Counted from the first letter of the stretch, positions 38,414 to 58,011 are shown. The stretch: 64,000 nucleotides of DNA from a bacterium (GCA_009923445.1 RFTN01000004.1:2438-66437); one strand, 5' to 3'. Notes: generated by a model not told the origin, from the sequence alone. Numbers and translations are program-made.

Positions 38414-41031
38414 CTAAGGAGCTTTAACGAACAGCTCCGACTTTGCATCGCTGCCACTGTAGAGTAGGCTGTCGGATACCTCTGCTGTAATTGTTTTTGT
38501 ATCGTTAAAAGTTGACTTATAGGTAACCGAATATGGTCCTGAACTGTCAATACTTACCGACCCACCTTCTATTACTTGCCCATCAATCTTAAAAGTTAAT
38601 GCACCCTTAAATTTATCACCACTTAGTGGGGCTGTACCTTGTGTAATTGTTGCAGTAAGCTTGTACGTACCAATTGTTGGTGTAGTGCTAATTGTAAGAC
38701 TTACTGTCGGGCTAATATCTTCACATTTATGAACATCATCTTTTTCTTGACCGGTATCGCTACTGCCTGTTACGAATTTATCACCAGAATACAGCGCTGC
38801 TTCTGCAAAGCTACGTTCTTCTTTTGCAAGTGCAGGGGTACAGTCAGTTGCGATTTTACCAGATACTTTGTCGTATATTTGTTTTTCGCCTGGCTTAATC
38901 GTTGGCTTGACAAACCACGAAGGGTACAGGTCGGTACTGCGACTAGGCTCGCGTGATCCAAGTCCAACGTGCGAGGTTATAACATATGCTGGTAATGTTT
39001 GTAGGCCGGCAGGAACTGCGCGTTTTTCTGGTTTAAGTTCGTCGTGAACACGGCGCATCCAGTTGCCCCAAATGGGCTCTGTCATGGTCTCCATAAAGGC
39101 GCGAGACGCTTTTTGTCTGCTATGATAACCAACCCACACACCAGCAGCATATTGTGTAGAAAAGCCCATAAGCCAACCATCTTTACCGTCATTAGTGGTG
39201 CCGGTTTTTAGTGAAAACTCGTGCCCCTTGTAACGATGGGGTTTATTACTAAAATAGCTAGCGTCAGGATCTGCCATCATGTCAGCAACAATATACGCAG
39301 ATTCTGGTCGTACGACCTGCTCTCCAACTGGTTGTGTCCATTCATATACTTTTTTGTTAGAAGAATCTTCGATTTTAAGTATGTATGTCTGGTCAATACG
39401 GTTACCGTTTCGTGAAATTGTTGTGTATGCATTTACATGCTTATCTAGGCTTAAAAAGGCACCGTCGCCAATTGCTGAGCTCGCATAACACTGAGTTTCT
39501 TCTGTTAGCTTCTCATCGGCATAACACTTGTAGCCGCCGCTGCCGTCTTTGTCTTGTAAGCCAAGCTTATTTGCTAGACCAATAGTCTTGTCAACTCCTG
39601 CAATCAACATTGCTTTAATGGCCGGTACGTTACGCGACCCACCCAGTGCATACCGAAGTGTTACTGGCCCAGGGTAGCGCAAATCGTAATCGTACAAACA
39701 GTTACCACCAGCTTTTGGTACTGCCTTATTTGTACACGGGTAGCCGTCAATAGGCCCTTGTATGTCATACAACACGGTTCCAGCCCCAAAAGTATTTGTG
39801 TTTTCAATAAGAGATAAGTAGTCATAAGGCTTAAAACTTGATCCTGGGGGTAGCGGCTGCTGAGCAAAGTTTATTTCACCTGCTCGTGAACTATCTGCAA
39901 AATCAGCACCTCCCACTAAGGCAACAACCTGACCCGTCTTAACATCCTCGGCAACAAATGCGGCAGTATCAAAAGCATAAAAACTAGGACTCGCGAGCAT
40001 AATTTTAAGCTCTTTTGCGACTTCTTCTTCGGCAATTTTTTGCTTCGGCATATCTAGTGTTGTGGTAACCTTCCAGCCGCCTCGTTTGTAGTTTTTCTCC
40101 GTATACTTAGCTTCAAGCTGATTTTTTGCTGCTAGTACAAAGTAAGGTGCTTGTATACCTGTATATTTAGGCTGACGTGGCTTTATCTTTGCCAGTACAT
40201 CAACTTTTTTTGCTTCATCACGTTGCTCTGGTTTAATTTTGCCCATATCGGTCATAACGTCAAGAACGTAATTTGAACGAGCCAGTAATTGATCTTTTTT
40301 AAATGATTGGCTATAGGGTGAATAGTAGGTTGGTGACTTGGGTATAGATGCTAAAAAGGCTGCTTCATCTAAGGTAAGGTCTTTAGCATTCTTTTGAAAA
40401 TAGGTTCGTGCCGCCACTTCAACTCCGTATTCAATGCCACCATATGGAGCGACTTGTTGTACGCCGCCCTAATAATGCCCTTTGTATCAAATCCGCCGTG
40501 TTTAAAGAAATCTCTATCTTCAACAGCAATAGTGGCATCTTTCATATAATCAGAAATATTATCATATGGAACCGGAACACGTTTTACGGCGTCATAATCT
40601 TCCCACAATAGGGTTTGGCCGGTGCGATCGTAATAACGCACACTGCCGCCTTTGTTACTACCAGAAATATCACGCAAATCAGGTAAGTCTTTTCTAAAGT
40701 AGGCAAATATAGCCATAAGACTAAAAAAGCCTACGACTAGCGCAACACCAGCAAATTTTAAGGCTAGTGTCAGTCCGTCTCGGCTAAACCAAAAAGCAAA
40801 TACTCGTTTTGGGTGTAAACGCCAAAAAAAGCGCTTCACACGTGACTTAGGCAGGCCTTTTAGGCGTGCTGCTTTGCGAGCAAGCTTGGCTTCGCGCCGA
40901 GCAATACTCTTTTCGGTCATAGTGCGGTGAATTTTAACTGTCGAACCAGATTTTGTTACAAACTTATTACCCTTTACTCGTCGTTTTCTGATAGGGGTGA
41001 TAGGCTCTTTAGATTGTGGTTTGTCTGCCAT
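38414..41031 (-). pseudogene. class A penicillin-binding protein (PBP1A), frameshifted with internally deleted GT51 domain
   Basis: There are two overlapping ORFs. ORF 40369..41031 has the TM helix and GT51 motif 1 'AVEDRDFFKHGGFD...IIRAAYN'. ORF 38414..40417 resumes at '...YGVEVAARTYF...LTLDEAAFLA' and has an intact transpeptidase domain ('SSFKP', 'SRN', 'KTGTT'). GT51 motifs GGSTITQQ, RKxxE and SKxxILExYLN are absent. Confidence 0.75.
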
Positions 41032-43139: not shown

Positions 43140-44699
43140 GTGAGCACGTCACTAAGATACATAAAAGGGGTGGGTCAAGCGCAAGAGCGCTTATTTGCTG
43201 TGCTTGGCGTCACTACTGTAGAAGAGCTTATTGCCTATGTGCCTAGGGCGTATAACGATTATTCAGACGTACAAAAAATCGCTCAACTAAAACCTGGTAT
43301 TGTTACATTGCAGGTAACATTTAGTAACATTACAGCGCGTTATGTCAGGCGTGGTCTGCACATTACCGAAGCTCTCGCAAGCGACGAATCGGGTAGTGTA
43401 AAAATTGTATGGTTTAATCAGCCGTTCCGCAAAACACAGCTAGTCGCAAATACACAGTACTTTTTAAGTGGCGAATTTGGCTTAAGTCGTCAGCGTATGA
43501 GTATTGTTAGTCCTGTAGTTGAGCGTGCCGATAATCTTCCTATTCACACCGCCCGTATTGTGCCAATTTACCGCGAAACTAAAGGTTTAAATTCTGCGTC
43601 AATACGCAAGGCGGTTAATGCGGCATTTTTACAGGCCGACCGTGTAAGCGAAACATTACCACAGTGCGATTCAGTCGTATTGTTGACGGGTTCGCTTAAA
43701 CCTGCCCAAAAGCGCCAAGCGCACGAAGCATTACAGCAGGGTAGTGCAAAACTCGCAGTTGGTACACACGCCTTGATTACAGATAAAGTTGCAATACATA
43801 ACTTGGGCCTTGTTATTGTCGACGAGCAACATCGTTTTGGCGTAGATCAGCGCAAAAAATTACAAAGCAAAGCCAAAAGCATGCCGCACGTGCTACATAT
43901 GACAGCAACGCCTATTCCACGCACACTCGCGCTTACGTTATATGGTGAGCTAGATATATCTATTATTGGCGTTATGCCCCTTGGTCGTTTGCCAATAAAA
44001 ACTACTATAGTGTCGCCAAATTCTAGAGCTAACATGTATAAACATGTGTTGCAGCGCCTACTGTTGGGCGAGCAAGTATTTGTTGTGTGTCCGCTTATTA
44101 CCGAAAGCGACATGCTACAGGCGCCATCTGCCGAGAATGTGTACAAACTAATGGCAAAACAGTTTAAAGACCACAGCGTAGGGTTATTGCACGGCAAGCT
44201 AAAAGCTGACCAAAAAGAAGCTATTATGCAGCAGTTTATAGACGGCAAATTAGATATTTTAGTCGCTACTACTGTCATAGAAGTGGGCGTTAACGTACCC
44301 AACGCAACAATTATGATCATAGAAGGTGCAGACAGGTTTGGTTTGGCACAGATGCATCAGTTACGCGGGCGAGTGGGCAGGTCAAATCAACAGGGACACT
44401 GTTATGTTATACCAAGCGACTCTAAGGCTCCTAGTGCGCGGTTGCGGGCATTTGCTAGCACCAATAACGGCTTTACACTGTCCGAACTCGATCTAAAACT
44501 ACGTGGACCCGGAGCGTTATACGGCACAATGCAGTCGGGCGCTTTAGACTTACGAGTAGCCACGTTATCTGACACAAAACTAATAGCCGCTGCAAGGGCA
44601 GGGGCCGAAGAATTTATCTCTAAAGATGAAAATCTGCTACACTACCCAGTAGTAGCAGAACACGTATCACGCATACGCACAATTACAAACTTAAATTAA
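43140..44699 (+). CDS. recG: ATP-dependent DNA helicase RecG, lacking helicase motifs I/Ia
   Basis: The wedge domain, 'VGTHAL', 'DEQHRFGV', 'MTATPIPRTLA' and 'QLRGRVGRS' are present. No GxGKT Walker A occurs anywhere in the protein. At 519 aa it is about 100+ aa short. Confidence 0.85.
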   Translation: MSTSLRYIKGVGQAQERLFAVLGVTTVEELIAYVPRAYNDYSDVQKIAQLKPGIVTLQVTFSNITARYVRRGLHITEALASDESGSVKIVWFNQPFRKTQLVANTQYFLSGEFGLSRQRMSIVSPVVERADNLPIHTARIVPIYRETKGLNSASIRKAVNAAFLQADRVSETLPQCDSVVLLTGSLKPAQKRQAHEALQQGSAKLAVGTHALITDKVAIHNLGLVIVDEQHRFGVDQRKKLQSKAKSMPHVLHMTATPIPRTLALTLYGELDISIIGVMPLGRLPIKTTIVSPNSRANMYKHVLQRLLLGEQVFVVCPLITESDMLQAPSAENVYKLMAKQFKDHSVGLLHGKLKADQKEAIMQQFIDGKLDILVATTVIEVGVNVPNATIMIIEGADRFGLAQMHQLRGRVGRSNQQGHCYVIPSDSKAPSARLRAFASTNNGFTLSELDLKLRGPGALYGTMQSGALDLRVATLSDTKLIAAARAGAEEFISKDENLLHYPVVAEHVSRIRTITNLN

Positions 44700-46079: not shown

Positions 46080-46664
46080 GTGGATAACTTTTTACCAGAT
46101 CATACTATAGATCAAATCATCACAAGTCAGCTGCATGAGAAGGATGTTGAATTTGATAGTAGGCGGCAAGCAAATAATCATTTAGATTTAGGTTACCAAG
46201 AGACTGAGTCACAGTTACGCGCACCTATTTTAAATGCCTTCAGTAAATTGTTGTTTTCAAAAAATATCGAAGTAGATTTTATAATACCCATGCCAGGTAG
46301 TGCCGTAGGCTGGATAGAAGCATTTAACAAGCTACGAGTATATTCACCCGAGATTATTTCATTGCGTAAGGTAACCCGGAGAAAATTTGAATTAATAGAT
46401 GATATAGATGAGAGTAAGTATGCTAATAAGCAAGGAATAGTGTTTGATGATACAACTATTGATGGTGGCTCGGGCGAAGCTGCGGCAGACTATTTAACTG
46501 ATAGTAAATTTGCGATCACCGCCATAGTTTCATTATTTGTCAGGGGCGAACAGCTAGCAAAAAGTAGCTATCCAAGATTTTGTATAGCGCATCGTCTTAT
46601 ACCCTCAAATCTAGACTGGAAAAAATTTAGACAACAGGGTAAAATAGAGCAGTTAAGATCCTAG
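46080..46664 (+). CDS. phosphoribosyltransferase-like protein
   Basis: 'GIVFDDTTIDGGSGEAA' resembles the PRPP-binding loop of type I PRTases. GTG start. The assignment is weak. Confidence 0.4.
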   Translation: MDNFLPDHTIDQIITSQLHEKDVEFDSRRQANNHLDLGYQETESQLRAPILNAFSKLLFSKNIEVDFIIPMPGSAVGWIEAFNKLRVYSPEIISLRKVTRRKFELIDDIDESKYANKQGIVFDDTTIDGGSGEAAADYLTDSKFAITAIVSLFVRGEQLAKSSYPRFCIAHRLIPSNLDWKKFRQQGKIEQLRS

Positions 46665-46667
46665 TTA

Positions 46668-46751
46668 GCGCGAGTGGTGGAATGGTAGACACGCATGCCT
46701 TAGGAGCATGTGCCGCAAGGTGTGAAGGTTCAAGTCCTTTCTCGCGCACCA
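46668..46751 (+). tRNA. tRNA-Leu (anticodon UAG), type II with long variable arm, CCA encoded
   Basis: Manual fold: acceptor GCGCGAG/CTCGCGC, D arm GTGG-AATGGTAGA-CACG, anticodon stem CATGC/GCATG with loop CTTAGGA, variable arm TGCCGCAAGGTGT, T arm GAAGG-TTCAAGT-CCTTT, then A-CCA. It is colinear with E. coli tRNA-Leu. Confidence 0.9.
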
Positions 46752-46760
46752 AAACAATAT

Positions 46761-46790
46761 GCCGACCTTTTTGGTCGGCTTGTTGTTTTG
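46761..46790 (+). terminator. rho-independent terminator after tRNA-Leu
   Basis: Hairpin 'gccgacc ttttt ggtcggc' followed by the T-rich tract 'ttgttgtttt'. Confidence 0.7.
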
Positions 46791-46811: not shown

Positions 46812-46906
46812 AGGGGAGTAGTGCCAGTGGCACTACGAGTAGGAGCGTCACTTGAAAACTTGTTTTCAAAGCAAGCGACGATTCTCAAGTCCTTTCTCGC
46901 GCACCA
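46812..46906 (+). repeat. structured repeat element E1, ending in a duplicate of the tRNA-Leu 3' end
   Basis: The order is 'aggggag', hairpin H1 'gtagtgcc agt ggcactac' (46818-46836), hairpin H3 'ttgaaaac tt gttttcaa' (46852-46869), 'agca', then 'tcaagtcctttctcgcgcacca'. It is homologous to the elements at 52903 and 58385. Confidence 0.7.
46885..46906 (+). repeat. 22-bp direct repeat of tRNA-Leu 3' end (att-like)
   Basis: 'tcaagtcctttctcgcgcacca' is identical to 46730-46751 (half of the T loop, the T-stem 3' strand, the acceptor 3' strand and CCA). Confidence 0.9.
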
Positions 46907-46923
46907 ATTTGACCTAGGTTTGA

Positions 46924-47784
46924 TTAGTTTGTAATTTGGGCAAAAATTAGAACCATTGTTACTACAAAGCCCGTAAACAAGTTTAGCCAAATAAAACGCC
47001 TCCAGGCACGGTTTGTTTTAAACGACTCTTTTTCAGAAACAAATAAGAATTTTTGTATGTTTATTGCATACAGTAAACCGCATAGTGCTATAACTAAGCC
47101 GCCAGTGTTTTGCGCCGCAATTATTACGGCCGCTACTATATACAACACAAAAGCAAACCGCACAGTAGTGGCTGCACCAAGCACAGTTGCTATAGATGCT
47201 ATGTTGGCCTTTTTGTCAGGAATAATATCTTGTACGGCACCAAATGCATGACTGGCCATTCCCCAAAGAAAAAACGCAGCCACAAAAGGCCATGCCGACG
47301 ATGGCCAATGCAGTAGCGAAATCGCATAAACAAGCGGACCCACAAAATGTATGCTACTGGTTATAGAGTCTAGCACGGGCCGTTCTTTAAAACGCAAATA
47401 TGCAACAGAGTAAGCCAACACAAAAAAAGTAAGAGCCAGCAGCACCAAGGCGGGCACAAGCCCCTGTGTAGCTAACAGTATCGCCAAAATAGGCACGTTA
47501 GTTATAACACAGGCCTTAATAATAGTAGGGTGAAACTGCTTTTGTTCGCGCATGCCCTCTATGCCGCCCTTGCGCGGGTTGCGTATATCTGACTCGTAAT
47601 CAAACACGTCGTTAACGCCGTACATTAGCAAGTTATAGGGGAACAAAAAATACAAAGTAGCTAGCAGCCACACGGCCGAATTGCTACCGCCGCACACTAC
47701 ATAACCAGCCGCAAAAGGGTAGGCTGTGTTTGGCCAAGAAATCGGCCGAGATACAAGAACTAATTTACGTAGAGTGTTTATCAT
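46924..47784 (-). CDS. crtEb: UbiA-family prenyltransferase, lycopene elongase-like
   Basis: Polytopic membrane protein with the UbiA Asp-rich motif 'NDVFDYESD'. It is the last gene of the crt operon, with an ATGA overlap with crtYf. Confidence 0.8.
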   Translation of the reverse strand: MINTLRKLVLVSRPISWPNTAYPFAAGYVVCGGSNSAVWLLATLYFLFPYNLLMYGVNDVFDYESDIRNPRKGGIEGMREQKQFHPTIIKACVITNVPILAILLATQGLVPALVLLALTFFVLAYSVAYLRFKERPVLDSITSSIHFVGPLVYAISLLHWPSSAWPFVAAFFLWGMASHAFGAVQDIIPDKKANIASIATVLGAATTVRFAFVLYIVAAVIIAAQNTGGLVIALCGLLYAINIQKFLFVSEKESFKTNRAWRRFIWLNLFTGFVVTMVLIFAQITN

Positions 47785-48119
47785 GATCGCTTGTCTTTGC
47801 TGGCAAATTTATTCCAAAGCGATGGCACTAGTATAGCCGCTATTACCGCATAAAAGAAATCTTCAATAGGGGCCTTACCTACATAAATACCTAGTATTTT
47901 AGAAGTGTCGTAGTCGCAGATTTTTAATGCAACAATTAGTGAGTCGAATATAGTAGTTAGTACCAGCAAACTTATAAACGTATATAGCCACGCTTTTGAG
48001 GGCTTTTTAACACGTATGCTAAACAGTAAAACAACTAGTAGCACAACGATTATGTTAAATACTAGGTACGTTTGCATACACGACTCCAGCCCGTATAAAG
48101 CACCAACGACACATAGCAC
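47781..48119 (-). CDS. crtYf: heterodimeric carotenoid cyclase subunit (small membrane protein)
   Basis: A ~100-aa, 3-TM protein with 'PIEDFFY', typical of small lycopene/C50 cyclase subunits. The likely true start is ATG at 48077. Confidence 0.7.
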   Translation of the reverse strand: MLCVVGALYGLESCMQTYLVFNIIVVLLVVLLFSIRVKKPSKAWLYTFISLLVLTTIFDSLIVALKICDYDTSKILGIYVGKAPIEDFFYAVIAAILVPSLWNKFASKDKRS

Positions 48120-48382
48120 AACAAAAATAAGAAGAACAATTCTTCAATAGGGAACTCGGGGGCGATTCTAATCGGCAGCGTATATTTGCTGCCACCATGA
48201 AAAAATATTCCAAGTGCTATACCCAGTACATCCCAAACTATAAAAACTAGCATGGTAATACCTAGTGTTTTGTAAGTTCTTTTTTTATCAAACCAAAAAG
48301 CAAGCTTATATTTTTTATCTAGCACTAACATGCCAGAAATACTTACCAGCAGCGCCAAAAGGTAGTAGAACTGTTCAATCAT
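48062..48382 (-). CDS. crtYe: heterodimeric carotenoid cyclase subunit (small membrane protein)
   Basis: A 106-aa, 3-TM protein with the 'PIEELFF' motif. Its start overlaps the crtI stop. Confidence 0.7.
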   Translation of the reverse strand: MIEQFYYLLALLVSISGMLVLDKKYKLAFWFDKKRTYKTLGITMLVFIVWDVLGIALGIFFHGGSKYTLPIRIAPEFPIEELFFLFLLCYVSLVLYTGWSRVCKRT

Positions 48383-49898
48383 GGCTGTCTACTAACCTTT
48401 CAATACTAGCAACTTGACCACCTTTTTTATTGCCCGCAATGCGCTTGTATACAAGCTCGGCACCTATGAGGCACATTGGCAGGCCAACACCTGGTACTGT
48501 GTTGCCGCCGACATAATAGAGGTTAGAGAGTTTACGACTTTTGTTGGGGGTTCTAAAAAATGCACTTTGTTTTAAAAGATGCGACTGACCAAGCATTGAA
48601 TTTTGCCATGAGTTAAACGCGCTGCCAAAATCGTTGGGGCCAAATAGGCGCTTTGTTTTAAGTCTATTTACTAAATCAACTCCTGTCATAACAGCTATTT
48701 GCTCAATATAGTGGTTGCTAAGCGACTCAAGATCGGCATCGTTAATGTCAATACTAGCCGGCAGGGGGACAAGTACAAAAACGTTTTCGCAGCCTTTGGG
48801 TGCAACTGCAGGATCTGTTTTGCTTGGCGTCGATATATAAATAGAGGCTTTTTTAGGAATAGTTTTAGTCGTGTAAATTGCATCAAAGTTATGTTGCCAT
48901 TCGTCAACAAACAATAAATTGTGATGTTCGAATTCAGGAATTTTTCCGCTTACGCCTAAGTACATTAGCAGTGCGCTTGGCCCGGGTTGCTTTTTCTTCC
49001 AATAGCTTGCATCAAAACTACGATCTTGTTTTTTAAGTAGCTTTGTTTCTGTATAATGCATATCTGCATTCGAAACTACAATATCCGCCTTAACAATACT
49101 GTCATTTTCAAGTTGCACGGCCGTAGCCTTACCCTCGCTTGATTGTATTGCGCTTACAGGGCTATTGTAGTGGTAGGTTACCGATAGTTTTTTACTCATT
49201 GCAACTAAACTTTGTATTATTGTGTAAATTCCGCCTTTGGGGTAAAAAACACCTTCTTTAAAATCAAGCGCACTCATTAGGCTGTATAGAGCCGGCGCAC
49301 TAAAAGGCGATGTTCCTAAAAACACCATAGGGTATTCTAAAATTTGCTTTAATCGTTGGTCGCTAACATAAGACGACACATAAGAGTCTATAGAGCGAGT
49401 CGTCATGCGCAGCAGGCTTGGAGCATTTTTTAGTATGTCGGTGTGAGTTAAGTCGCTAAGCGTTTCGAAATTTGTGTATAAAAAGTGCTTTAGTGACATG
49501 CGGTACATATGTTCGGACTTTTTAACATATGACTCTAGGGCGGCACCGGCACCTTTTTCTATGTGCTCAAAGGTTGCTGAGTCAGTTGCTAGGTCGCTTG
49601 TAATTGTTATGGGAGCCTTAGCTTCAAAAAATACTTTATAGGCTGGGTCTAAACGCTTTAGGCTTAACCAGTCGTCGATATTTTCGTTAAGTAAACTAAA
49701 GTAGTGTGCAAATACTTCGGGCATTAAATACCACGACGGCCCACTATCAAAAATAAACCCGTCAAGTTCAATCAGGCCGGCTCGTCCTCCAGCAGTGGGG
49801 CCTTGCTCGTACACATGTACGTCGTAGCCAGCTTTTGCAAGCAAATTTGCTGTTGCTATGCCACCAATACCTGCGCCTATTACAATAACTTTACTCAC
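48375..49898 (-). CDS. crtI: phytoene desaturase
   Basis: FAD motif 'VIVIGAGIGGIATANLLAKAG' and C-terminal 'YYVGGNTVPGVGLPMCLIGA'. The GTG start at 49898 forms a GTGA overlap with the crtB stop. Confidence 0.9.
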   Translation of the reverse strand: MSKVIVIGAGIGGIATANLLAKAGYDVHVYEQGPTAGGRAGLIELDGFIFDSGPSWYLMPEVFAHYFSLLNENIDDWLSLKRLDPAYKVFFEAKAPITITSDLATDSATFEHIEKGAGAALESYVKKSEHMYRMSLKHFLYTNFETLSDLTHTDILKNAPSLLRMTTRSIDSYVSSYVSDQRLKQILEYPMVFLGTSPFSAPALYSLMSALDFKEGVFYPKGGIYTIIQSLVAMSKKLSVTYHYNSPVSAIQSSEGKATAVQLENDSIVKADIVVSNADMHYTETKLLKKQDRSFDASYWKKKQPGPSALLMYLGVSGKIPEFEHHNLLFVDEWQHNFDAIYTTKTIPKKASIYISTPSKTDPAVAPKGCENVFVLVPLPASIDINDADLESLSNHYIEQIAVMTGVDLVNRLKTKRLFGPNDFGSAFNSWQNSMLGQSHLLKQSAFFRTPNKSRKLSNLYYVGGNTVPGVGLPMCLIGAELVYKRIAGNKKGGQVASIERLVDSHD

Positions 49899-50725
49899 CT
49901 TATAAATACTCCGCTTATTAGTATCTTTGCAAGTAGCCAAAGTTTATAAAAACTATTCAGACGCACGCGTTCGGACTTAATAGTTGATAGTGTTGCAGCG
50001 TCTAGTTTTTTAAGTAGCTTGCTGTAATAAGCATAGCTTAAGCTCACCGCTTTTTTAGACGAACGGGGCAACGTATGCAGGGCTTTAGTGGCCGTTTTAA
50101 AGTCGCTGTATATGTCTGCCGCAACGGCCTGTTTAGCGGTATCGTCAAACGTGTCATAGCTATAACCCGGAAAATAAAAGCGTTTACGCACCGTGTAGTC
50201 ATTTTGAATATCTCGCAAAAAATTAACTTTTTGAAACGCTGAACCCAATGCCCGTGCACCATGCTCAAGGTTGTTGTACATAGTTTTGTCATTTAAGGTA
50301 AATACTTTTAAGCACAACAAGCCCACAACTTCGGCTGAGCCGTAAATGTACTTGTCGTAATCTTTTTTTGAATACGTCATGGGCTGCAGATCCATACGCA
50401 TACTGTCAAAAAAGGGCGTTATTAACGACCAGCTTATATCAAATTCTTTTACAGTTACTACAAAGCTTTGAATAATTGGGTTCGTGCTGTAGTTTCTTTT
50501 AACGGCGGTGCATAGTTCGGTCTCTAACTCGTCAAGCGCATCTTTTGCGGCTACACCTTGGTAGGTGTCTACAATTTCATCGGCTATTCGTACTAAGCCA
50601 TAAATTGCATATATATGCTTGCGAACGGGTTTTGCAAACAGCTTTGAGCTTAAGCCAAACGAACTACTATAACGCAGGGTCAGTAGCCGGCTTATTTGGT
50701 ACGAAACATCATTGTATAGGTCCAT
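49895..50725 (-). CDS. crtB: phytoene synthase
   Basis: Squalene/phytoene synthase motifs 'YGLVRIADEIVD', 'YIYGSAEVVGLL' and 'AFQKVNFLRDI'. Confidence 0.9.
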   Translation of the reverse strand: MDLYNDVSYQISRLLTLRYSSSFGLSSKLFAKPVRKHIYAIYGLVRIADEIVDTYQGVAAKDALDELETELCTAVKRNYSTNPIIQSFVVTVKEFDISWSLITPFFDSMRMDLQPMTYSKKDYDKYIYGSAEVVGLLCLKVFTLNDKTMYNNLEHGARALGSAFQKVNFLRDIQNDYTVRKRFYFPGYSYDTFDDTAKQAVAADIYSDFKTATKALHTLPRSSKKAVSLSYAYYSKLLKKLDAATLSTIKSERVRLNSFYKLWLLAKILISGVFIR

Positions 50726-50728
50726 AAT

Positions 50729-51784
50729 TTAAAATTCGCGCACGGTAGATTTATTAATAAGTTCTGTAAATGCAGCTTGAGCCGATTTGTTTATGTGTAG
50801 CTGGGCTAGTGCTTGACTAGCGTTGTTTGAGTATTCTAAAACCTTGTCTTTTGCTTTTTTGTAAGCACCGCTTGCCACCAATAGGTCGCGTATAATGTCT
50901 GCCTCTTTTTCGCTACAGCTGCTATTACCAAAAATTGAATTAAATGTTGCTAAATCTTTGGCATTTGAGTTCTGGTTAAAATATTCTACTAAAATAGTCA
51001 TTTTACCCTCACGTATATCGCTTGTAGTTGATTTACCTGTTACGGCTTTGTCGCCAAATGTGCCAATAATGTCGTCGGTAAACTGAAAAGCTATGCCTAA
51101 GTTTTCGGCATACACCCGCAAAAGATCTTGCTCGCTAGTTGGAGCACCCGCCAATACGGCGCCAGTTAACAGTGGCCCTATAAAGCTATAGCTAGCAGTT
51201 TTGTATCGGGCAACTGTTGCGGTTTGAATTTCCCCAGTTGGTTTAAAAGAAATCTCGTTATCGAGTAGTTCGCCGGCGGTCACCTCAAAAATACTCGTCG
51301 ACAACAACTGTTGGCACGCGCTCAGTGTATCTTTAGAAACATGTGCCGCAAGCATCGTTTTATATGCTGCAGATATAAGCAGGTCACCACCAAGCAGTGC
51401 AGCACTCAGTGCAAAATGTTGGCGACTTTTTTCATTGGCAACAAATTGGCTATAGGTTTGGCGATAGGCGCCGTCAATGTTTGGTACACCGTAGCGCAAT
51501 GTATCGTTGTCTATAATATCGTCATGAATAAGCATACTTTGATGAATAAGCTCCTGAGAAAGCGCCAGCGGCATAACAGCGGCTATGTCGCTACCACCAT
51601 ATGCCCTATATGCTAAAAGCGTCATTTTGGGGCGTAAGCGTTTGCCACCCGAATTAACAAGCCTTTGAATTTGTAACCAAAGCAGTTCGTAGTTTGGGTG
51701 TATGGTTTTAGCACTCGCTAGCTGCTCTTCAAAAAAAAGGGCGAGTGATTCTTCGATTTTATCTTTGTGGTCATGTAAATGCAT
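50729..51784 (-). CDS. crtE: polyprenyl (geranylgeranyl) diphosphate synthase
   Basis: FARM 'LIHDDIIDND' and SARM 'FQFTDDIIG', plus 'GGKRLRP'. First gene of the crt operon. Confidence 0.85.
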   Translation of the reverse strand: MHLHDHKDKIEESLALFFEEQLASAKTIHPNYELLWLQIQRLVNSGGKRLRPKMTLLAYRAYGGSDIAAVMPLALSQELIHQSMLIHDDIIDNDTLRYGVPNIDGAYRQTYSQFVANEKSRQHFALSAALLGGDLLISAAYKTMLAAHVSKDTLSACQQLLSTSIFEVTAGELLDNEISFKPTGEIQTATVARYKTASYSFIGPLLTGAVLAGAPTSEQDLLRVYAENLGIAFQFTDDIIGTFGDKAVTGKSTTSDIREGKMTILVEYFNQNSNAKDLATFNSIFGNSSCSEKEADIIRDLLVASGAYKKAKDKVLEYSNNASQALAQLHINKSAQAAFTELINKSTVREF

Positions 51785-51818
51785 ATTATTCTTTAGTATA
51801 TTTTATACTAAATCAACT

Positions 51819-51879
51819 AAGTAAGTTCTTTATTGTTAGTTAAAAGCGCTATATAACTATGGGTTAAGTAAAAAACGTA
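51819..51879. repeat. repeat C (upstream flank of crtE), homologous to right half of 54801-54941
   Basis: 'aagtaagttcttt...ataactatgggttaag...' aligns with gaps to 54878-54941, including an exact 14-mer 'aactatgggttaag'. Confidence 0.7.
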
Positions 51880-51921
51880 CAGGATACCCTGAAGTAGGAC
51901 ACTTAAGCTTGTATTGTTATC

Positions 51922-52480
51922 CTACTTAAGTATACCTCGTTGGCTGTTTTGTAGCCCAAGACTTGTCTTGGGCGATCGTTTAGGTACGTCAGTACCTGAG
52001 CGATCTTTCATTTGTAACTGTTTGCAAATCTGTATTCTTCGGTATGAAGTGGCGTATCCATTTGTTGGTATTCTCAACCAGTCCTTTCTCCTAGCTATGG
52101 TATGGATGCGTAAAGTAGAATGGAGCTCCAGGCAACTGTTCATAGTATCTCCAGTGGGTAAAAGCTATGTCGTTGTCGGTCAGGATAGTCTTGACTCTAA
52201 CTCCATCAAACAGCTTACGTAGGGCTCGCGAGAGCTACGGTTTTGTTCGATTGGGCATTAGCTCTATCATAGTTTGTTTGCTTAGAGTGTCGACTTCCAC
52301 AAGTAACACAGCCTTGCCACCGCTCTTTGTCGGGCTGACGATGAAGTCGAGTTCGTAGTGACCAAGCTCATCACGCAGGATGCGTTCTTCAATCCATCTA
52401 CGTTCACCAATGATTCCCCGGCGGTACATAGCTTACCGTCGTTTAGGCTTACCTTTGAAGTACAGCTTATGTTGCAGAAT
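51922..52480 (-). pseudogene. IS30-family transposase remnant (N-terminally truncated, frameshifts and an in-frame stop)
   Basis: Minus-strand fragments read 'IEERILRDELGHYELDFIVS...AVLLVEVDTLSK', 'KTILTDNDIAFTHW' and 'FTHPYHS*EKGLVENTNKWIRHFIPKNTD', where TAG replaces the conserved Trp. Together they match the IS30 DDE core in three different frames. Confidence 0.8.
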
Positions 52481-53184: not shown

Positions 53185-54675
53185 ATGTTTGGTAGAAAAG
53201 ATAAGACAATTGAACAAGCACATGAATCGGTTGCGCCGATTAAGCTACCTGAAGCTCCAGAAGAACTTACACTTGCCCCTGCGAGTATAGTAACTTATGA
53301 AAATTTGGACATATCTGATGTTTATGAACAAGTACTTTCTGTAAACGGCAGCGTTAAGCTGATCAACACAAGACTGCCTCTTCCAGCAGATGACGTAACG
53401 CTTAATGTTGAGACTGACGGAGATACTTTTGACGTATATGGAACAATAAGCTTGCTAGATAAAAAACGTGCTGCAGGGGTTGTTAAAAAAGTTGCTAAGC
53501 TTATAGAGAAGTCTAGTGAAGATACGGGCGGCACTATAACTACATACAGGGATGGTTTAGACGTAAAGGATCAAAACGGAACGCGCCTCCTTATCGCTCA
53601 AGGTGCCTATTACTCGGAAAACGAAAGCATCATCGTGAGCACTGGTAAACTTAAGGATGGATACGACTCGACATTGGATGTATTTGAGTCTCCTGAGCTA
53701 ACTAAGGAGCTATTTAAAGCGACAGTAGAACAGACGCTTGGGGCAATGGCGATGGTGTTGAATGTTGCATACGCAATGGAAGAAAACCAAACTGGGCGCG
53801 AAGTTACTTTGCGCGTTGTCCAGAAAAATTCTCAAAAATTGCAAGATACAAAATCACAAGAAGAAGTTGAGCAATTGGTAAATGATGGGGCACATCCAAA
53901 GCTAACACTTGATGATATTGGTGGCCAAGCTGAAGCAAAAGAAGAGATCAAGAGTTTGGCGTACGCATTATCACACCCAGAATCATACCGAAGGTGGGGT
54001 GCACAGCCTCCTAAAGGCATACTTTTTGAAGGTCCGCCCGGCACAGGCAAGACATTATTGGCTCGTGTAGTGGCGTCAGAGGCAGATGCTTCGTTCTTCC
54101 CAGTATCGGTAGCAGATGTTACTTCTAAGTGGTATGGCGACTCTGAAAAAAAGATCAAACGAATATTCGAACAAGCAGCCCGAGCAGAGAAGGCTATTAT
54201 ATATTTTGACGAACTTGATGCTTTATCGCCATCGCGCAACAGCTCTCACGAGGCAACGAGTCGCGTAGTCAGCATAATCTTGCAGTGTATGGACGGGTTC
54301 CTAGCTAAAGGAAATGTGTTTGTTATTGCATCGACAAATAATGCAGATAAGATAGATGAAGCATTACTTCGTACTGGCCGCTTTGATAGGAAAATATACA
54401 TAGGTTTGCCGGATAGTGAAGCACGCAAATCTATCTTTAACATACATATGAAAAAAGCATGCGAAACAGCAGATAGACAACTATTCGATGAGATTGATCT
54501 TGACGAACTTGCTGAGGCCGCAGAAGGAATAAGTGGTGCGGATATTAAGGAAATGGTAAGAAGAACGCTCGAACAAAAAGTGCGTACAGAAATGATTTCT
54601 AAACAGGCGAATGACAACCCTGTCACTACACAGGATATATTGAATCAGCTATCTGCTTACAAAAAGATAAATTGA
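53185..54675 (+). CDS. AAA+ ATPase (classic FtsH/CDC48-type AAA module) with uncharacterised ~240-aa N-terminal domain
   Basis: Walker A 'GPPGTGKTLLAR', Walker B 'IIYFDELDAL' and a second region of homology 'ASTNNADKIDEALLRTGRFDRKIYI'. The N-terminal half has no recognisable motif. Confidence 0.8.
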   Translation: MFGRKDKTIEQAHESVAPIKLPEAPEELTLAPASIVTYENLDISDVYEQVLSVNGSVKLINTRLPLPADDVTLNVETDGDTFDVYGTISLLDKKRAAGVVKKVAKLIEKSSEDTGGTITTYRDGLDVKDQNGTRLLIAQGAYYSENESIIVSTGKLKDGYDSTLDVFESPELTKELFKATVEQTLGAMAMVLNVAYAMEENQTGREVTLRVVQKNSQKLQDTKSQEEVEQLVNDGAHPKLTLDDIGGQAEAKEEIKSLAYALSHPESYRRWGAQPPKGILFEGPPGTGKTLLARVVASEADASFFPVSVADVTSKWYGDSEKKIKRIFEQAARAEKAIIYFDELDALSPSRNSSHEATSRVVSIILQCMDGFLAKGNVFVIASTNNADKIDEALLRTGRFDRKIYIGLPDSEARKSIFNIHMKKACETADRQLFDEIDLDELAEAAEGISGADIKEMVRRTLEQKVRTEMISKQANDNPVTTQDILNQLSAYKKIN

Positions 54676-54800
54676 CCTTTAACATAGGGTTAAATTACGG
54701 TTTTGTATCGTGCATCAGATAAGAATAATCTTAAACTTGTTACTCCTGAACCTACGCTAAGTAATAACGTACTGATAGGTAATAATGTATTTGCTACTTC

Positions 54801-54941
54801 ACAAAGCCCGAAAACAAGTTTAGCCAAATAAAACGCCTCCAGGCAGGGTTTGTTTTAAGCGACTCTTTTTCATAAACAAGTAAGTTCTTTGAATGTATGT
54901 TAGTTGCGTTATAAAACTATGGGTTAAGCGGAAAATACGTA
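54801..54941. repeat. composite ghost junction: copy of crtEb 3' end fused to copy of crtE upstream flank
   Basis: 54801-54880 matches 46964-47043 (76/80 by manual alignment). 54878-54941 matches 51819-51879 with gaps. The switch point is at 'aagtaagttcttt'. Confidence 0.85.
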
Positions 54942-55513
54942 ACGTTTGCATCATGAAAAGGGAAGGCGTTCCAGCTTGGGCAGCTTTGGTGTACTAAATG
55001 GTCAAAAACATCCTCTGGTGTTTGGGGCCCCTGCATATGTTTAGGCAGCCAAGAGCTTGTCAGGGTAAATAAATCGCCGTGTTGGTTAAGTGGTACCAGT
55101 CCTACACCGTGCGGCTCGCTGTCAGGGCTGTATATGATATTTTGTTCTAGATCGTGCTCTTCGGTTGCGTCTATATCTAGTATTACGCCGTACCCATTTT
55201 TAACCATATGACGTAGTAGCTTACAAAAACTTTTCTCGCTTGATTCGTTGGCAAAGCCAAGGTCACGCCAAGAATCTAGCCCAATATCTGTCGCTATCAT
55301 GTTCATTGCAACGGTCATAAGGCTATTTTTACGATGTTTAGTAAGGTGTGCAGACTCGTCAATTGCACAAAACCCAACGTATGCAAGATACGACTCTGTG
55401 CTAACTTCGTTAGTACTAAGCCTATCGAAGGCCGTTGGGTAACACACCGGCAAGGGAGCGTCCGGTCCGGTTAACCCCTTGCGCACTTTGTCTTGGTAGC
55501 TTTGCTCACTCAT
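54917..55513 (-). CDS. hypothetical protein (198 aa)
   Basis: Intact ORF with no confident motif. Its last codons ('...PLNP*') lie inside the repeat, which also occurs, degraded, upstream of crtE. Confidence 0.5.
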   Translation of the reverse strand: MSEQSYQDKVRKGLTGPDAPLPVCYPTAFDRLSTNEVSTESYLAYVGFCAIDESAHLTKHRKNSLMTVAMNMIATDIGLDSWRDLGFANESSEKSFCKLLRHMVKNGYGVILDIDATEEHDLEQNIIYSPDSEPHGVGLVPLNQHGDLFTLTSSWLPKHMQGPQTPEDVFDHLVHQSCPSWNAFPFHDANVTYFPLNP

Positions 55514-55808: not shown

Positions 55809-56036
55809 ATGAGTACAAATAAATCTGTTAGCCTTAAAGAACTACGCGAACAGTTCCCTAAGTATATTGAAGCTATTTCTAAGGGACAAAGCTTTACGGT
55901 AGTTAAACGATCAAAACCTATTTTTCAGTTAAACCCAATCAGTGACGAAGGCGATTGGCAAACTATTGCTGATTTTACTACCATCGAAGATAATGGCGTT
56001 AAAGCTGAAGATGTACTGGCAGTACTAGAGGCATAA
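55809..56036 (+). CDS. type II antitoxin, Phd/YefM family
   Basis: 75 aa. 'VSLKELREQFPKYIEAISKGQSFTVVKRSKPIF' is typical of the Phd/YefM N-terminal fold. Confidence 0.75.
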   Translation: MSTNKSVSLKELREQFPKYIEAISKGQSFTVVKRSKPIFQLNPISDEGDWQTIADFTTIEDNGVKAEDVLAVLEA

Positions 56037-56042
56037 TTTATT

Positions 56043-56288
56043 ATGGCTGATAAGATAAAAAAGCTTTTAGCCAAACTTAAATCTCAAGAGCGTGAATTAG
56101 TTAAGTTGTTGATATTGCGAGTCAAATTAGACGATACCCTAGGGCTAGATATTAAGCAACTAAAAGGTCATTCTGATCTTTTTAGAGTACGAAAGGGAAG
56201 GTTAAGAATTGTATTTAGAAAAGATGCAAACAGCTTTTTAATTGTAAGAATAGACCGCCGGAACGAAAAAACTTACAAAGATCTTTAA
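56043..56288 (+). CDS. type II toxin, RelE/ParE superfamily
   Basis: 81 aa. 'LKGHSDLFRVRKGRLRIVFRKDANSFLIVRIDRRNEKTY' matches the RelE/ParE core pattern. It lies 7 nt after the antitoxin gene. Confidence 0.75.
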   Translation: MADKIKKLLAKLKSQERELVKLLILRVKLDDTLGLDIKQLKGHSDLFRVRKGRLRIVFRKDANSFLIVRIDRRNEKTYKDL

Positions 56289-56304
56289 AACAAGTTCAGC
56301 CAGG

Positions 56305-56339
<35 letters not shown>

Positions 56340-56346
56340 CTACAAA

Positions 56347-56374
56347 AGTTAGAATCCATCATCCCCAGCCAAAT
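56347..56374 (+). repeat. tRNA-3'-end-like motif, copy b
   Basis: 'agttagaatccatcatccccagccaaat'. Confidence 0.55.
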
Positions 56375-56540
56375 TTGTTTTATAGTATTTTCATCTGTTA
56401 TTTCGGTTTTGATTTTTCGGTTATTGTGAAATAATTCAATCATTTGTAAAATCCTTATCTTTTAATTAAGTTCGAATCCTTTATGCCCTTTTACGGCTAC
56501 CCATATATATGCTTAAGTAAAAATCTGCTAATATAATCCT

Positions 56541-56690
56541 ATGAAGAAATATGATTTTTTAATTCTATTAGTAGTTTCAGCGTTTTTCGGATTTTTTATA
56601 GCAACAGCAAAAGACAGGGCTAGGTATGTTATTTCGATCTTACCCGTAATCGCTGTAATCATTTTAGCTTTTAGACAGAGAAAGAGTTAA
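56541..56690 (+). CDS. possible small hydrophobic peptide (49 aa)
   Basis: 'MKKYDFLILLVVSAFFGFFIATAKDRARYVISILPVIAVIILAFRQRKS' has two predicted TM segments. It is below the track's size cutoff and has no clear RBS. Confidence 0.3.
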   Translation: MKKYDFLILLVVSAFFGFFIATAKDRARYVISILPVIAVIILAFRQRKS

Positions 56691-56849
56691 GGTAAGTTCT
56701 TCTAGAGATCCATTCCTTTAGTATTGCTGTCGGACTAGCGTGTCTTAACTAGAAAGCACCGTTCCATCGGGATACTTTCTTATTAATAGTCATCACAGTC
56801 CGTCATTATGGTTTCCTTTTTCAAACATTGTGAAGAAGTTCATGAACTT

Positions 56850-56903
56850 GTAAATCCTCATCTGTAAAAGTTCCATTAACGTCCTGCCTCCCCGGCCAAA
56901 TTG
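56850..56903 (+). repeat. tRNA-3'-end-like motif, long variant, copy d
   Basis: 'gtaaatcctcatc|tgtaaaagttccattaacgtcctgcct|ccccggccaaattg' is the same ends as the short copies, with a 27-nt internal segment. Confidence 0.7.
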
Positions 56904-57035
56904 AATTTCAACTAGTCCACCAAACTTTCTTATATGCTGATGTTTTGTTGTTTTTTAATTATGATCAGTGAGCTACCTATATAGGTAATGCCTTATATTG
57001 AAACTTTGTATAGTTACTGATATACTTATAAAGTT

Positions 57036-57947
57036 ATGAACTACCAAGAATATCTAAAATCAATCATTAAAGCGTCAGGCTGGTCTCAGGAGCAACTTGC
57101 ATCGCAATTGGGCGTAACTTTCGTAACTGTAAATTCCTGGATAAATAGTAGATCTAAACCCAGAGCAAAAGCACTGGTACGTATAGAAAAACTCTATTTC
57201 GACACTGTTGGTACCGAAACGGTAGATACTAATATACTCGCTAAGCTAAAAGCTCAGGCCCTAAAGAGCAAAATTACCCCTCAGCAGCTAGTAAGCAACA
57301 AAGAATTACTTGATAAACTAACACTTTACTTAACCTATCATACGAATACTATCGAAGGTAGTACTATGACATTATCTGATGTCGGGGATGTTATCTTTGA
57401 TCGCAAAGTATTGTCTAACCGCACGGCAATTGAACAGGCAGAGGCACGCAACCACCAGGCAACACTCCATTGGTTAATAGATTTACTAAATCAAGATAAA
57501 AAATTAGTAATAAGCGAAGGACTTATATTAGATACCCATTTGCGACTTATGAATGGAATTATTAGTGATGCCGGTAAATACCGTAACCATGCAGTTAGGA
57601 TTCTAGGCTCGAGGGTGGTATTGGCAAACCATTTAAAAGTTCCTGAACTTGTTAAGGAACTTAGTGGGGACGATTCGCTAAAGTACGATCTGATCTCCAA
57701 ACTAGCTCGAACACATGCACAATTTGAGCAGATTCACCCTTTTAGCGATGGCAACGGTCGAACGGGTAGATTGATCATGCTTATTCAGGCCCTAATTGAC
57801 AGTAAGGTTCCGCCCCTAGTGCGTAAAGAACGCAAGTTTGCATACTATAAGGTCCTTGAAATTGCTCAAACAAAAGGTATTTATGAGCCTCTAGAATTAT
57901 TTATTGCTGAATCTATGTTATTTAGTAACGAGCTCCTCAGTAGTTAA
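57036..57947 (+). CDS. Fic-domain protein with N-terminal XRE-type HTH
   Basis: HTH 'SGWSQEQLASQLGVTFVTVNSWINSRSKP', Fic motif 'HPFSDGNGRTGRL' and an upstream 'TNTIEGS' (S/TxxxEG-type) helix. Confidence 0.85.
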   Translation: MNYQEYLKSIIKASGWSQEQLASQLGVTFVTVNSWINSRSKPRAKALVRIEKLYFDTVGTETVDTNILAKLKAQALKSKITPQQLVSNKELLDKLTLYLTYHTNTIEGSTMTLSDVGDVIFDRKVLSNRTAIEQAEARNHQATLHWLIDLLNQDKKLVISEGLILDTHLRLMNGIISDAGKYRNHAVRILGSRVVLANHLKVPELVKELSGDDSLKYDLISKLARTHAQFEQIHPFSDGNGRTGRLIMLIQALIDSKVPPLVRKERKFAYYKVLEIAQTKGIYEPLELFIAESMLFSNELLSS

Positions 57948-58011
57948 AGAGCCGTCTTCCGTAGAGTCATCGAGCAGTTTCTGGATTTCTTCTATATCAT
58001 CAACGTTCAGA

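Follow-up and report, generated by a model that had tools for sequence, protein, structure and literature searches.

The window analysed here, a stretch of 64,000 nt from a bacterial genome (GCA_009923445.1, RFTN01000004.1:2438-66437), contains between positions 46924 and 51784 a six-gene crt operon whose products are predicted to form a complete pathway for a cyclic C50 carotenoid. We are fairly confident that this is an intact, selectively maintained cyclic C50 operon in a tiny-genome member of the Saccharimonadales, and that it represents an old cassette widespread among the Saccharibacteria and no recent import. Bacteria of the Candidate Phyla Radiation (CPR) are viewed as biosynthetically minimal epibionts in which the synthesis of lipids and isoprenoid precursors is reported missing, and Actinobacteria are the known host phylum of the Saccharibacteria. 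An earlier reading of the window, made from its sequence (hereafter the original prediction), had recognised the operon and proposed that it had been acquired as an island from an actinobacterial host. Two readings are corrected by the present analysis: the operon is not a recent host-derived island, and a cyclic C50 carotenoid is a more likely product than bacterioruberin.

The pathway as such is already known, and the complete, conserved operon is visible across Saccharibacteria in public annotations of metagenome-assembled genomes (MAGs). In the searchable literature it has been mentioned only in passing, under another reading: no paper was found that describes a crtEBI-YeYf-Eb operon in Saccharibacteria, the sole mention of C50-type genes being a report of 'bacterioruberin genes' (lyeJ/crtD/cruF homologues) in Baikal Patescibacteria (PMC9948471). 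A complete and conserved pathway under purifying selection means that many Saccharibacteria invest in a costly membrane carotenoid, each molecule of which takes ten C5 units, and raises questions about the source of the precursors, the function of the pigment and the age of gene exchange with Actinobacteria.

Gene content and predicted product

Open reading frame (ORF) calling together with Pfam and NCBIfam profile searches gave six genes in the same direction, all on the minus strand, running from 51784 to 46924 in the order crtE-crtB-crtI-crtYe-crtYf-crtEb, exactly where the original prediction had placed them. The first, crtE (51784..50729, 351 aa), encodes a short-chain polyprenyl diphosphate synthase of the geranylgeranyl diphosphate (GGPP) type (Pfam PF00348 polyprenyl_synt, E = 1.9e-45) with the first Asp-rich motif, DDIIDND, at residue 88; its best NCBIfam matches are GGPP/farnesyl diphosphate-type synthases, every one of them under its equivalog cutoff. 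Phytoene synthase is encoded by crtB (50725..49895, 276 aa; Pfam PF00494 SQS_PSY, E = 7e-39) and phytoene desaturase by crtI (49898..48375, 507 aa, GTG start; TIGR02734 crtI_fam, 508.7 bits, cutoff 238.1), for which an alternative longer ORF with a TTG start at 49940 exists. With PF00348, PF00494 and TIGR02734 all over cutoff, the lycopene-forming module of GGPP synthase, phytoene synthase and CrtI-type desaturase is complete.

Downstream of crtI lie a crtYe-like gene (48382..48062, 106 aa; TIGR03462 CarR_dom_SF, 53.9 bits, cutoff 39.4) and a crtYf-like gene (48077..47781, 98 aa, ATG at 48077; TIGR03462, 48.7 bits, same cutoff), the latter also matching Pfam PF18916 (39.4 bits, cutoff 27) and extended by the mechanical ORF call back to a GTG at 48119. 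These are two neighbouring CarR-domain membrane subunits of about 100 aa, as in heterodimeric cyclases, and they are predicted to pair. The original prediction had assigned three transmembrane segments to each of them; the sizes agree, and hydropathy gives three hydrophobic segments for the CrtYe product and at least two strong ones for that of crtYf. The last gene, crtEb (47784..46924, 286 aa), adjoins the cyclase genes and encodes a UbiA-family prenyltransferase of the lycopene-elongase type. It scores 377.5 bits on NF009608/PRK13105 (cutoff 217), a model itself named only 'prenyltransferase', and at most 35 bits on quinone-type UbiA/MenA (4-hydroxybenzoate prenyltransferase) models, so that a grouping with the quinone enzymes, named earlier as a possible objection, was not found. 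Both of its Asp-rich motifs are present (NDVFDYESD at 58, DIIPD at 186), and the Asp-rich catalytic motifs are thus intact in CrtE and CrtEb alike.

The stop codon of crtE is separated from the start of crtB by a gap of 3 nt. A GTGA overlap at the crtB/crtI junction and an ATGA overlap at crtYf/crtEb were found as predicted, and the other junctions are tighter still, the frames of crtI and crtYe overlapping by 8 nt (ATGATTGA) and those of crtYe and crtYf by 16 nt. Such start/stop overlaps couple translation from crtB through crtEb.

By analogy with the Corynebacterium, Micrococcus and Dietzia systems, CrtE would make GGPP, CrtB would join two GGPP molecules into phytoene and CrtI would desaturate phytoene to lycopene; CrtEb, as a UbiA-type elongase, would then add a C5 unit, dimethylallyl diphosphate (DMAPP), at both ends of lycopene to give an acyclic, flavuxanthin-like C50 carotenoid, and a CrtYe/CrtYf heterodimer would close the end rings, whose epsilon, gamma or beta type is not callable from sequence. 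The pigment is likely to serve as a membrane-embedded photoprotectant or antioxidant and/or as a membrane rigidifier, candidate functions being photoprotection in sunlit freshwater lineages with rhodopsins/heliorhodopsins, rigidity in ultra-small cells and protection against oxidative stress. Freshwater Saccharimonadia have been reported to encode only the C10-C20 isoprenoid steps, the C5 pathway being absent (PMC9166423), and the ten C5 units needed for each pigment molecule, as isopentenyl diphosphate (IPP) and DMAPP, may therefore come from the host cell. No genes of the methylerythritol phosphate or mevalonate pathways were found in the 64-kb window, which is only a fraction of the genome.

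Profile matches and locus comparison agree with the original prediction that the gene set and order match those of the actinobacterial cyclic C50 cluster (PMC3598387, PMC6393565), which was defined genetically in Corynebacterium glutamicum (PMC3598387) and of which the pathway has been rebuilt in Escherichia coli from Corynebacterium, Micrococcus and Dietzia genes (PMC6393565). The C. glutamicum decaprenoxanthin cluster, crtE-cg0722-crtB-crtI-crtYe-crtYf-crtEb (Heider et al. 2012, PMC3598387), has the same enzymes in the same order with the UbiA elongase last, and is co-transcribed with overlapping reading frames (PMC3598387). Two of its elements are lacking in the window: a cg0722-like gene for a membrane protein, which would separate crtE from crtB, and the divergent MarR-type regulator gene crtR upstream, where an IS30 remnant is found instead. 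The host of the window operon, moreover, is a CPR epibiont at 42% guanine plus cytosine (GC). The window proteins are 29-56% identical to those of the sampled actinobacterial-type loci, a sample that includes neither C. glutamicum nor Micrococcus luteus. Micrococcales-type clusters (Cryobacterium, Arthrobacter, Paenarthrobacter, Georgenia) have a gene order identical to that of the window and contain the nearest named non-CPR homologues, but they form a separate clade (300/300 bootstraps), have a GC content of 60-76%, and some of them encode the elongase and the second cyclase subunit as one fusion protein (P0123, 405 aa), whereas the two are separate in the window. In the sarcinaxanthin genes crtE2/crtYg/crtYh of M. 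luteus the elongase precedes the cyclase genes (PMC6393565), unlike in the window. The lbtA-lbtBC genes of Dietzia sp. CQ4 (for C.p.450, a beta-cyclic C50) combine a heterodimeric small-subunit cyclase with a UbiA elongase as the window does, although here subunit and elongase are separate genes joined by the ATGA overlap; a cyclase-elongase fusion of the Dietzia type also occurs inside the Saccharibacteria clade (P0121, 388 aa).

We regard it as unlikely that the operon leads to a C40 cyclic carotenoid (e.g., beta-carotene, by a cyclase of the CrtYc/Yd type) or to an acyclic C50 of the bacterioruberin type. Generic lycopene-cyclase-domain models, which also take in heterodimeric C40 beta-cyclases, are the only ones that the small subunits match, and CrtI scores best on the bifunctional CrtID model NF058655, though under its cutoff (528 vs. 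640 bits); both points would suit such products. However, in every locus the cyclase subunits are directly followed by a translationally coupled PRK13105-type elongase, an arrangement that is the hallmark of cyclic C50 clusters, and in some relatives this elongase is fused to one of the subunits, as in Dietzia LbtBC (PMC6393565). Bacterioruberin was the reading that Haro-Moreno et al. 2023 gave to the lyeJ/crtD/cruF homologues of Patescibacteria (PMC9948471), and the haloarchaeal bacterioruberin cluster, crtI/crtD-lyeJ-cruF, likewise has a UbiA-family elongase beside a CrtI-family desaturase. Yet that cluster includes cruF and no small cyclase subunits, and the operon in the window shows the opposite arrangement, with two cyclase subunits and no cruF beside the elongase, which makes the bacterioruberin reading less likely and speaks for a cyclic C50 product as opposed to an acyclic, hydrated one. 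Moreover, neither CrtYe nor CrtYf resembles the CruF of Halarchaeum significantly (best E = 0.029 over 69 aa), and haloarchaeal LyeJ is just 30-35% identical to the CrtEb of the window.

Host, distribution and phylogeny

The window carries a set of core genes (TyrRS, DnaE, UvrB, GatA/B, RadA, RecG, ClpC, a penicillin-binding protein (PBP) and a sortase) that form a block syntenic with sister genomes. Nearly all named relatives of its TyrRS at 64-68% identity belong to the Saccharimonadales, Saccharibacteria or Patescibacteria (one bears the label Nevskiaceae), and a sibling MAG at 96% identity is labelled Candidatus Saccharibacteria. These features point to a Saccharimonadales (Saccharibacteria/CPR) host, in line with the original prediction, and the TyrRS relatives and the core synteny exclude an actinobacterial origin of the contig, which would have made the cluster unremarkable. 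It is scarcely credible that binning or assembly joined the operon of another organism to a Saccharibacteria contig: the MAG is labelled only 'bacterium' at NCBI, and two internal deletions elsewhere in the window relative to public copies betray an imperfect assembly, but the operon shares a single contig with core genes (TyrRS, RecG, ClpC, DnaE) in five assemblies, composition is uniform across the window, and the same operon is found on Saccharibacteria contigs of 0.6-1.0 Mb.

The same operon, in the same order, is present in at least 26 other Saccharibacteria/Patescibacteria loci with a CrtEb identity of 53-71%. When one genome per GTDB species was scanned, the best matches were 24 Saccharibacteria/Patescibacteria loci with a CrtEb identity of 53-66% (one at 96%), followed by 56 actinobacterial loci, mostly from Micrococcales but with one Sporosarcina among them, at 45-54%, with the order crtE-B-I-Ye-Yf-Eb kept in essentially all of them; crtE is the leading gene in 21/26 Saccharibacteria loci. 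Relatives of CrtEb number in the thousands, the best 120 being 59-95% identical. Several of these lie on contigs of 0.8-1.0 Mb, and two have organism names, Candidatus Saccharibacteria bacterium and Candidatus Microsaccharimonas sp.; the named representatives of clusters at 50% identity are Paenarthrobacter, Agromyces, one Dehalococcoidia and one Saccharimonadales fusion with a family 2 glycosyltransferase (GT2). In a search of a plasmid collection the operon was found on no known plasmid except one Arthrobacter megaplasmid and haloarchaeal replicons.

Each of the six window proteins has a higher identity to Saccharibacteria copies (40-71%) than to actinobacterial-type ones (29-56%), and CrtEb is 45-54% identical to the prenyltransferase in the same position of actinobacterial-type crtEBI-YeYf-Eb clusters, of which about 55 share this order. 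For all six genes the nearest named non-CPR relatives are Actinobacteria, mainly Micrococcales. In a concatenated tree of five proteins, built on 1517 columns from 18 Saccharibacteria operons and 43 others, the split between Saccharibacteria and Actinobacteria was recovered in 300/300 bootstraps with a stem of 0.26, and the mean divergence within Saccharibacteria (0.66) was as deep as that of the actinobacterial sample (0.59). The single-gene trees gave the same split with 200/200 for crtE, crtB, crtI and crtEb and 177/200 for the short crtYe. The original prediction had proposed this comparison and had itself named a grouping with other Patescibacteria as the outcome that would count against it; since the Crt proteins do branch with Patescibacteria, a recent host-to-epibiont transfer is refuted on those terms.

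With haloarchaeal LyeJ as outgroup of the CrtEb tree, 228/300 bootstraps had the root inside Saccharibacteria, 43/300 had it inside Actinobacteria and 7/300 between the two groups, so that the actinobacterial clade fell inside Saccharibacteria diversity in 76% of bootstraps, probably by long-branch attraction. The distance to the outgroup is about 1.7, and no transfer direction was drawn from this root; it shows no signal of passage from Actinobacteria to Saccharibacteria, the direction proposed earlier.

The GC content of the operon (0.417) is that of the rest of the window (0.418), and its GC content at third codon positions (GC3, 0.39) falls in the 0.31-0.40 range of the background. Across 21 Saccharibacteria loci the GC of the operon (0.44-0.57) tracks that of its flanks (r = 0.80, mean difference -0.003), while actinobacterial operons have a GC of 0.60-0.76. 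The absence of a compositional break, which had been judged by eye, thus holds for windowed GC and GC3, with codon usage only modestly off. The ratio of nonsynonymous to synonymous substitution rates (dN/dS) of crtEb between the window and its ELA291 sibling is 0.13, and the gene is under purifying selection. Because its composition is host-like and it is under purifying selection, the operon would be both functional and a long-standing resident of its host lineage. Its flanks differ in every lineage examined (L003, L004, L006 and others), examples being photolyase/Fur/glutaredoxin, HSP20/glyoxalases and AhpC-thioredoxin. Among the sequences compared, the operon is monophyletic within Saccharibacteria, host-like in composition and differently located in each lineage.

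Origin of the operon and the tRNA-Leu site

A tRNA-Leu(tag) gene on the plus strand at 46668-46751 (ARAGORN; Rfam RF00005, 58.6 bits) runs convergently to the operon, and 172 nt separate it from the stop codon of crtEb. The distance of 170 bp given by the original prediction is thereby borne out, but the tRNA stands at the 3' end of the operon and not at its start. Between the two lie a bidirectional hairpin terminator (46761..46779; 7-bp stem with six G-C pairs, T-run on both strands), which is kept after tRNA-Leu in the sister genome L090, and, 16 nt from the crtEb stop, a partial plus-strand copy of the 3' end of tRNA-Leu (46885..46907) that is identical in 23/23 positions to 46730-46752. 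The duplication noted earlier is therefore real and exact over 23 nt, with two copies in the window against none expected by chance; no third copy was found in the window with up to three mismatches allowed. Both copies lie on the tRNA side of the operon, 155 bp apart, and bracket 132 bp and not the operon. A search of the spacer and the partial copy against Rfam returned nothing beyond the tRNA itself.

In the sister genomes L089 and L090, whose TyrRS is 72% identical to that of the window, RsmD leads to the same tRNA-Leu, and synteny with the window ends at the tRNA. There, tRNA-Leu is followed by the hairpin, a homologous spacer and a diverged partial copy of the tRNA 3' end, and the crt operon is absent. 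In the ELA291 sibling (L025, 94% identical), crtEb is followed by the same partial copy and then by a truncated tRNA remnant, so that counterparts of the partial copy occupy the same relative position in L089, L090 and L025, in diverged form. Since the sisters have the duplication without the operon, it is best read as an old, att-like scar of the tRNA locus and not as a mark of the arrival of the operon. The comparison with sister genomes that had been proposed thus has a double outcome: the operon is absent from the tRNA-Leu site in L089/L090 and present in the 26 or more other loci mentioned above. A tRNA-integrated island carrying the operon was considered as a candidate structure and rejected, as the repeats are one-sided, there is no integrase, GC is host-like and the same structure is present in the operon-free L089/L090.

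Actinobacteria being the nearest named non-CPR relatives, and the two phyla being distant while having the same operon architecture, a single ancient inter-phylum exchange is the simplest account, and one ancient exchange between Saccharibacteria and Actinobacteria, in either direction, is plausible. Transfer from Actinobacteria to Saccharibacteria would be attractive on biological grounds, the known hosts being Actinobacteria and the pathway being widespread in that phylum. What survives of the transfer reading in the original prediction is its remark that a transfer, if there was one, could be old. A recent genomic island, passed from an actinobacterial host into the epibiont and integrated at tRNA-Leu, is by contrast highly improbable. 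It would account for the gene order common to both phyla, for the tRNA with its duplicated 3' end, the IS30 remnant and the copy scar beside the operon, and for the sister genomes without the operon at this site; yet the proteins are nearer to Saccharibacteria copies, the two groups separate in all bootstraps, the operon has none of the high GC of its actinobacterial counterparts and no break from its host, and the tRNA repeat is confined to its 132 bp and older than the divergence from L089/L090. Phylogeny, GC/GC3 and the tRNA repeat thus all speak against the acquired island of the original prediction, which was nevertheless right in placing the locus in a rearranged, variable region.

An old Saccharibacteria cassette may still be a mobile one. 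That it moves horizontally among Saccharibacteria and arrived here fairly recently from another member of the group is possible, and we hold it as a tentative alternative to purely vertical descent. Several observations would fit it: the flanks differ between lineages, sisters with 72% TyrRS identity have no operon at the homologous site, codon usage and GC3 depart a little from the host mean, toward the higher-GC Saccharibacteria operons, and the nearest CrtEb relatives fall from 95-96% to 71% while TyrRS relatives at 83-73% exist. The IS30 remnant, the scar of a second copy and the variable, tRNA-linked region adjoin the operon, and in one locus (L019) the GC of the operon is 0.087 below that of its flanks. 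Nevertheless, the operon in the window is bracketed neither by an integrase or transposase nor by a pair of repeats, its bulk GC is identical to that of the host, the position beside the tRNA-Leu remnant is common to ELA291, and Saccharibacteria are generally poorly syntenic, so that varied flanks may reflect rearrangement only. Given the varied flanks, the operon-free site in L089/L090, the decayed IS30 element, the scar left by a second copy and the slightly deviant codon usage, the operon is best counted as part of the flexible genome.

The reading of an old, functional cyclic C50 operon has to be set against several points. Pooled codon usage of the operon deviates modestly from the background (0.096 vs. 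0.066 +/- 0.011, reached by 0.4% of random gene sets), which leaves room for a relatively recent arrival from another Saccharibacterium. The trees are neighbour-joining trees on corrected p-distances and not maximum-likelihood ones, and they cover the Crt proteins alone. In a tree of CrtEb only (about 70 representatives) the deep branches measure 0.00-0.06 and the exact Saccharibacteria set was recovered in 28/200 replicates; this tree was set aside for the named loci and the concatenation, as partial or rogue sequences move about in it. The product and the C50 elongation itself are predicted from homology and synteny, CrtEb having been compared only with uncharacterized orthologues from actinobacterial clusters. 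A scan for sigma-70-like promoters upstream of crtE gave no convincing site above chance.

A broader scenario, which we consider doubtful, is a C50 pathway that runs on host-derived IPP/DMAPP and was anciently exchanged between epibiont and actinobacterial host lineages, possibly from epibiont to host. If true, the operon would be a marker of long-standing metabolic and genetic coupling between the two phyla.

The variable region and related loci

Directly upstream of crtE lies an IS30-family transposase pseudogene (about 51904-52429, minus strand) that corresponds to the C-terminal DDE half of the protein. It contains stops and one frameshift; its hand-joined translation scores 95.2 bits on NF033563 (cutoff 80) over profile positions 130-267/267 and matches Pfam rve with E = 2.2e-5. 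An IS30 composite transposon carrying the operon was rejected, with one decayed half-transposase on this side and nothing IS30-like on the tRNA side. Farther upstream, a minus-strand 'ghost' at 54791..54941 joins the 3' end of crtEb to the upstream region of crtE: 54791-54884 matches 46956-47047, the 3' coding end of crtEb (94% over an ungapped core of 84 nt), and 54872-54941 matches 51812-51879, upstream of crtE (74% over a repeat core of 47 nt), the two halves meeting at the microhomology AACAAGTAAG. Most changes in this fragment are non-synonymous, and it also contains a stop and an indel of 2 nt. Both the IS30 remnant and the ghost copy of the operon ends had been pointed out earlier and are present. 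The ghost is apparently the footprint of a second copy of the operon from which the interior of about 4.8 kb was deleted; the variable region after tRNA-Leu would once have held two copies, one of which would have been lost through a microhomology deletion, leaving a scar of 150 bp, with the IS30 element decaying beside the surviving copy.

A SpoVK/Vps4-type AAA+ ATPase gene (53185..54675, plus strand; Pfam AAA, E = 1.7e-40) separates the live operon from the ghost. Next to the ghost on its upstream side, and in the same orientation, is a gene for a 198-aa protein of unknown function (54917..55513, minus strand), which has no Pfam match and is conserved in close relatives. In the stretch from 56000 to 57950, GC dips to 0.324 at 56-57 kb; this trough contains an (AT)n run (56305-56336) and adjoins a helix-turn-helix Fic/DOC gene (57036..57947). 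The stretch from 52 to 58 kb is accessory or variable DNA, marked by the trough, the Fic/DOC gene, the AAA+ ATPase and the 198-aa ORF.

On the other side, positions 46080-46664 hold a 194-aa gene that was called orotate phosphoribosyltransferase-like by JGI and has no significant Pfam match. It stands between RsmD and tRNA-Leu in the lineage of the window alone, RsmD directly preceding the tRNA in L089/L090, and has the most deviant codon usage among all genes of the window. In ELA291, the DNA beyond the tRNA remnant (L025, 527-2700) is unrelated and has a GC of 48-51%, compared with 41% for crtEb; its products are an AAA_5 (MoxR/McrB-like) ATPase and a protein of 349 aa with unknown function, and it looks like a foreign insertion at the tRNA-Leu site. 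As unrelated DNA follows the tRNA remnant there, the tRNA-Leu site can be regarded as a hot spot of integration and rearrangement beside the operon.

Relative to the otherwise 100%-identical public contigs L001/L002, the window lacks two segments, at 43666 and 40453/40454. In recG, 468 nt are missing in frame, which removes 156 aa including the Walker A motif GDVGSGKT (ORF of 519 instead of 675 aa), and in the PBP gene the loss of 175 nt splits a 930-aa gene into the ORFs 38414..40417 and 40369..41031. The two deletions are either a strain variant or an assembly artefact.

Among the related loci, a contig of 926 kb (L019) is the only one of the 21 with a large mismatch between operon (0.469) and flank GC (0.556), and is a candidate for recent transfer of the cassette within the phylum. 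Two operons within the Saccharibacteria clade were deposited as 'Chloroflexi bacterium' (L020) and 'Candidatus Parcubacteria bacterium' (L023), which are probably binning or labelling errors. Within 6 kb of the crt operon, 11/26 Saccharibacteria loci encode a multi-pass transmembrane PAS sensor histidine kinase and 8/26 a response regulator that combines a receiver domain with a Pro-rich tail (loci with either or both: L004, L008, L010, L013, L014, L016, L018, L019, L026, L028 and L029); neither is found near the operon of the window. The recurrence of these neighbours suggests signal-dependent regulation. Finally, four relatives (P0126, P0127, P0129 and P0136, of which P0127 comes from Candidatus Saccharimonadales) are fusions of about 670 aa of a PRK13105-type elongase domain with a GT2 glycosyltransferase, and may be combined elongase/glycosylase enzymes for glycosylated C50 carotenoids.

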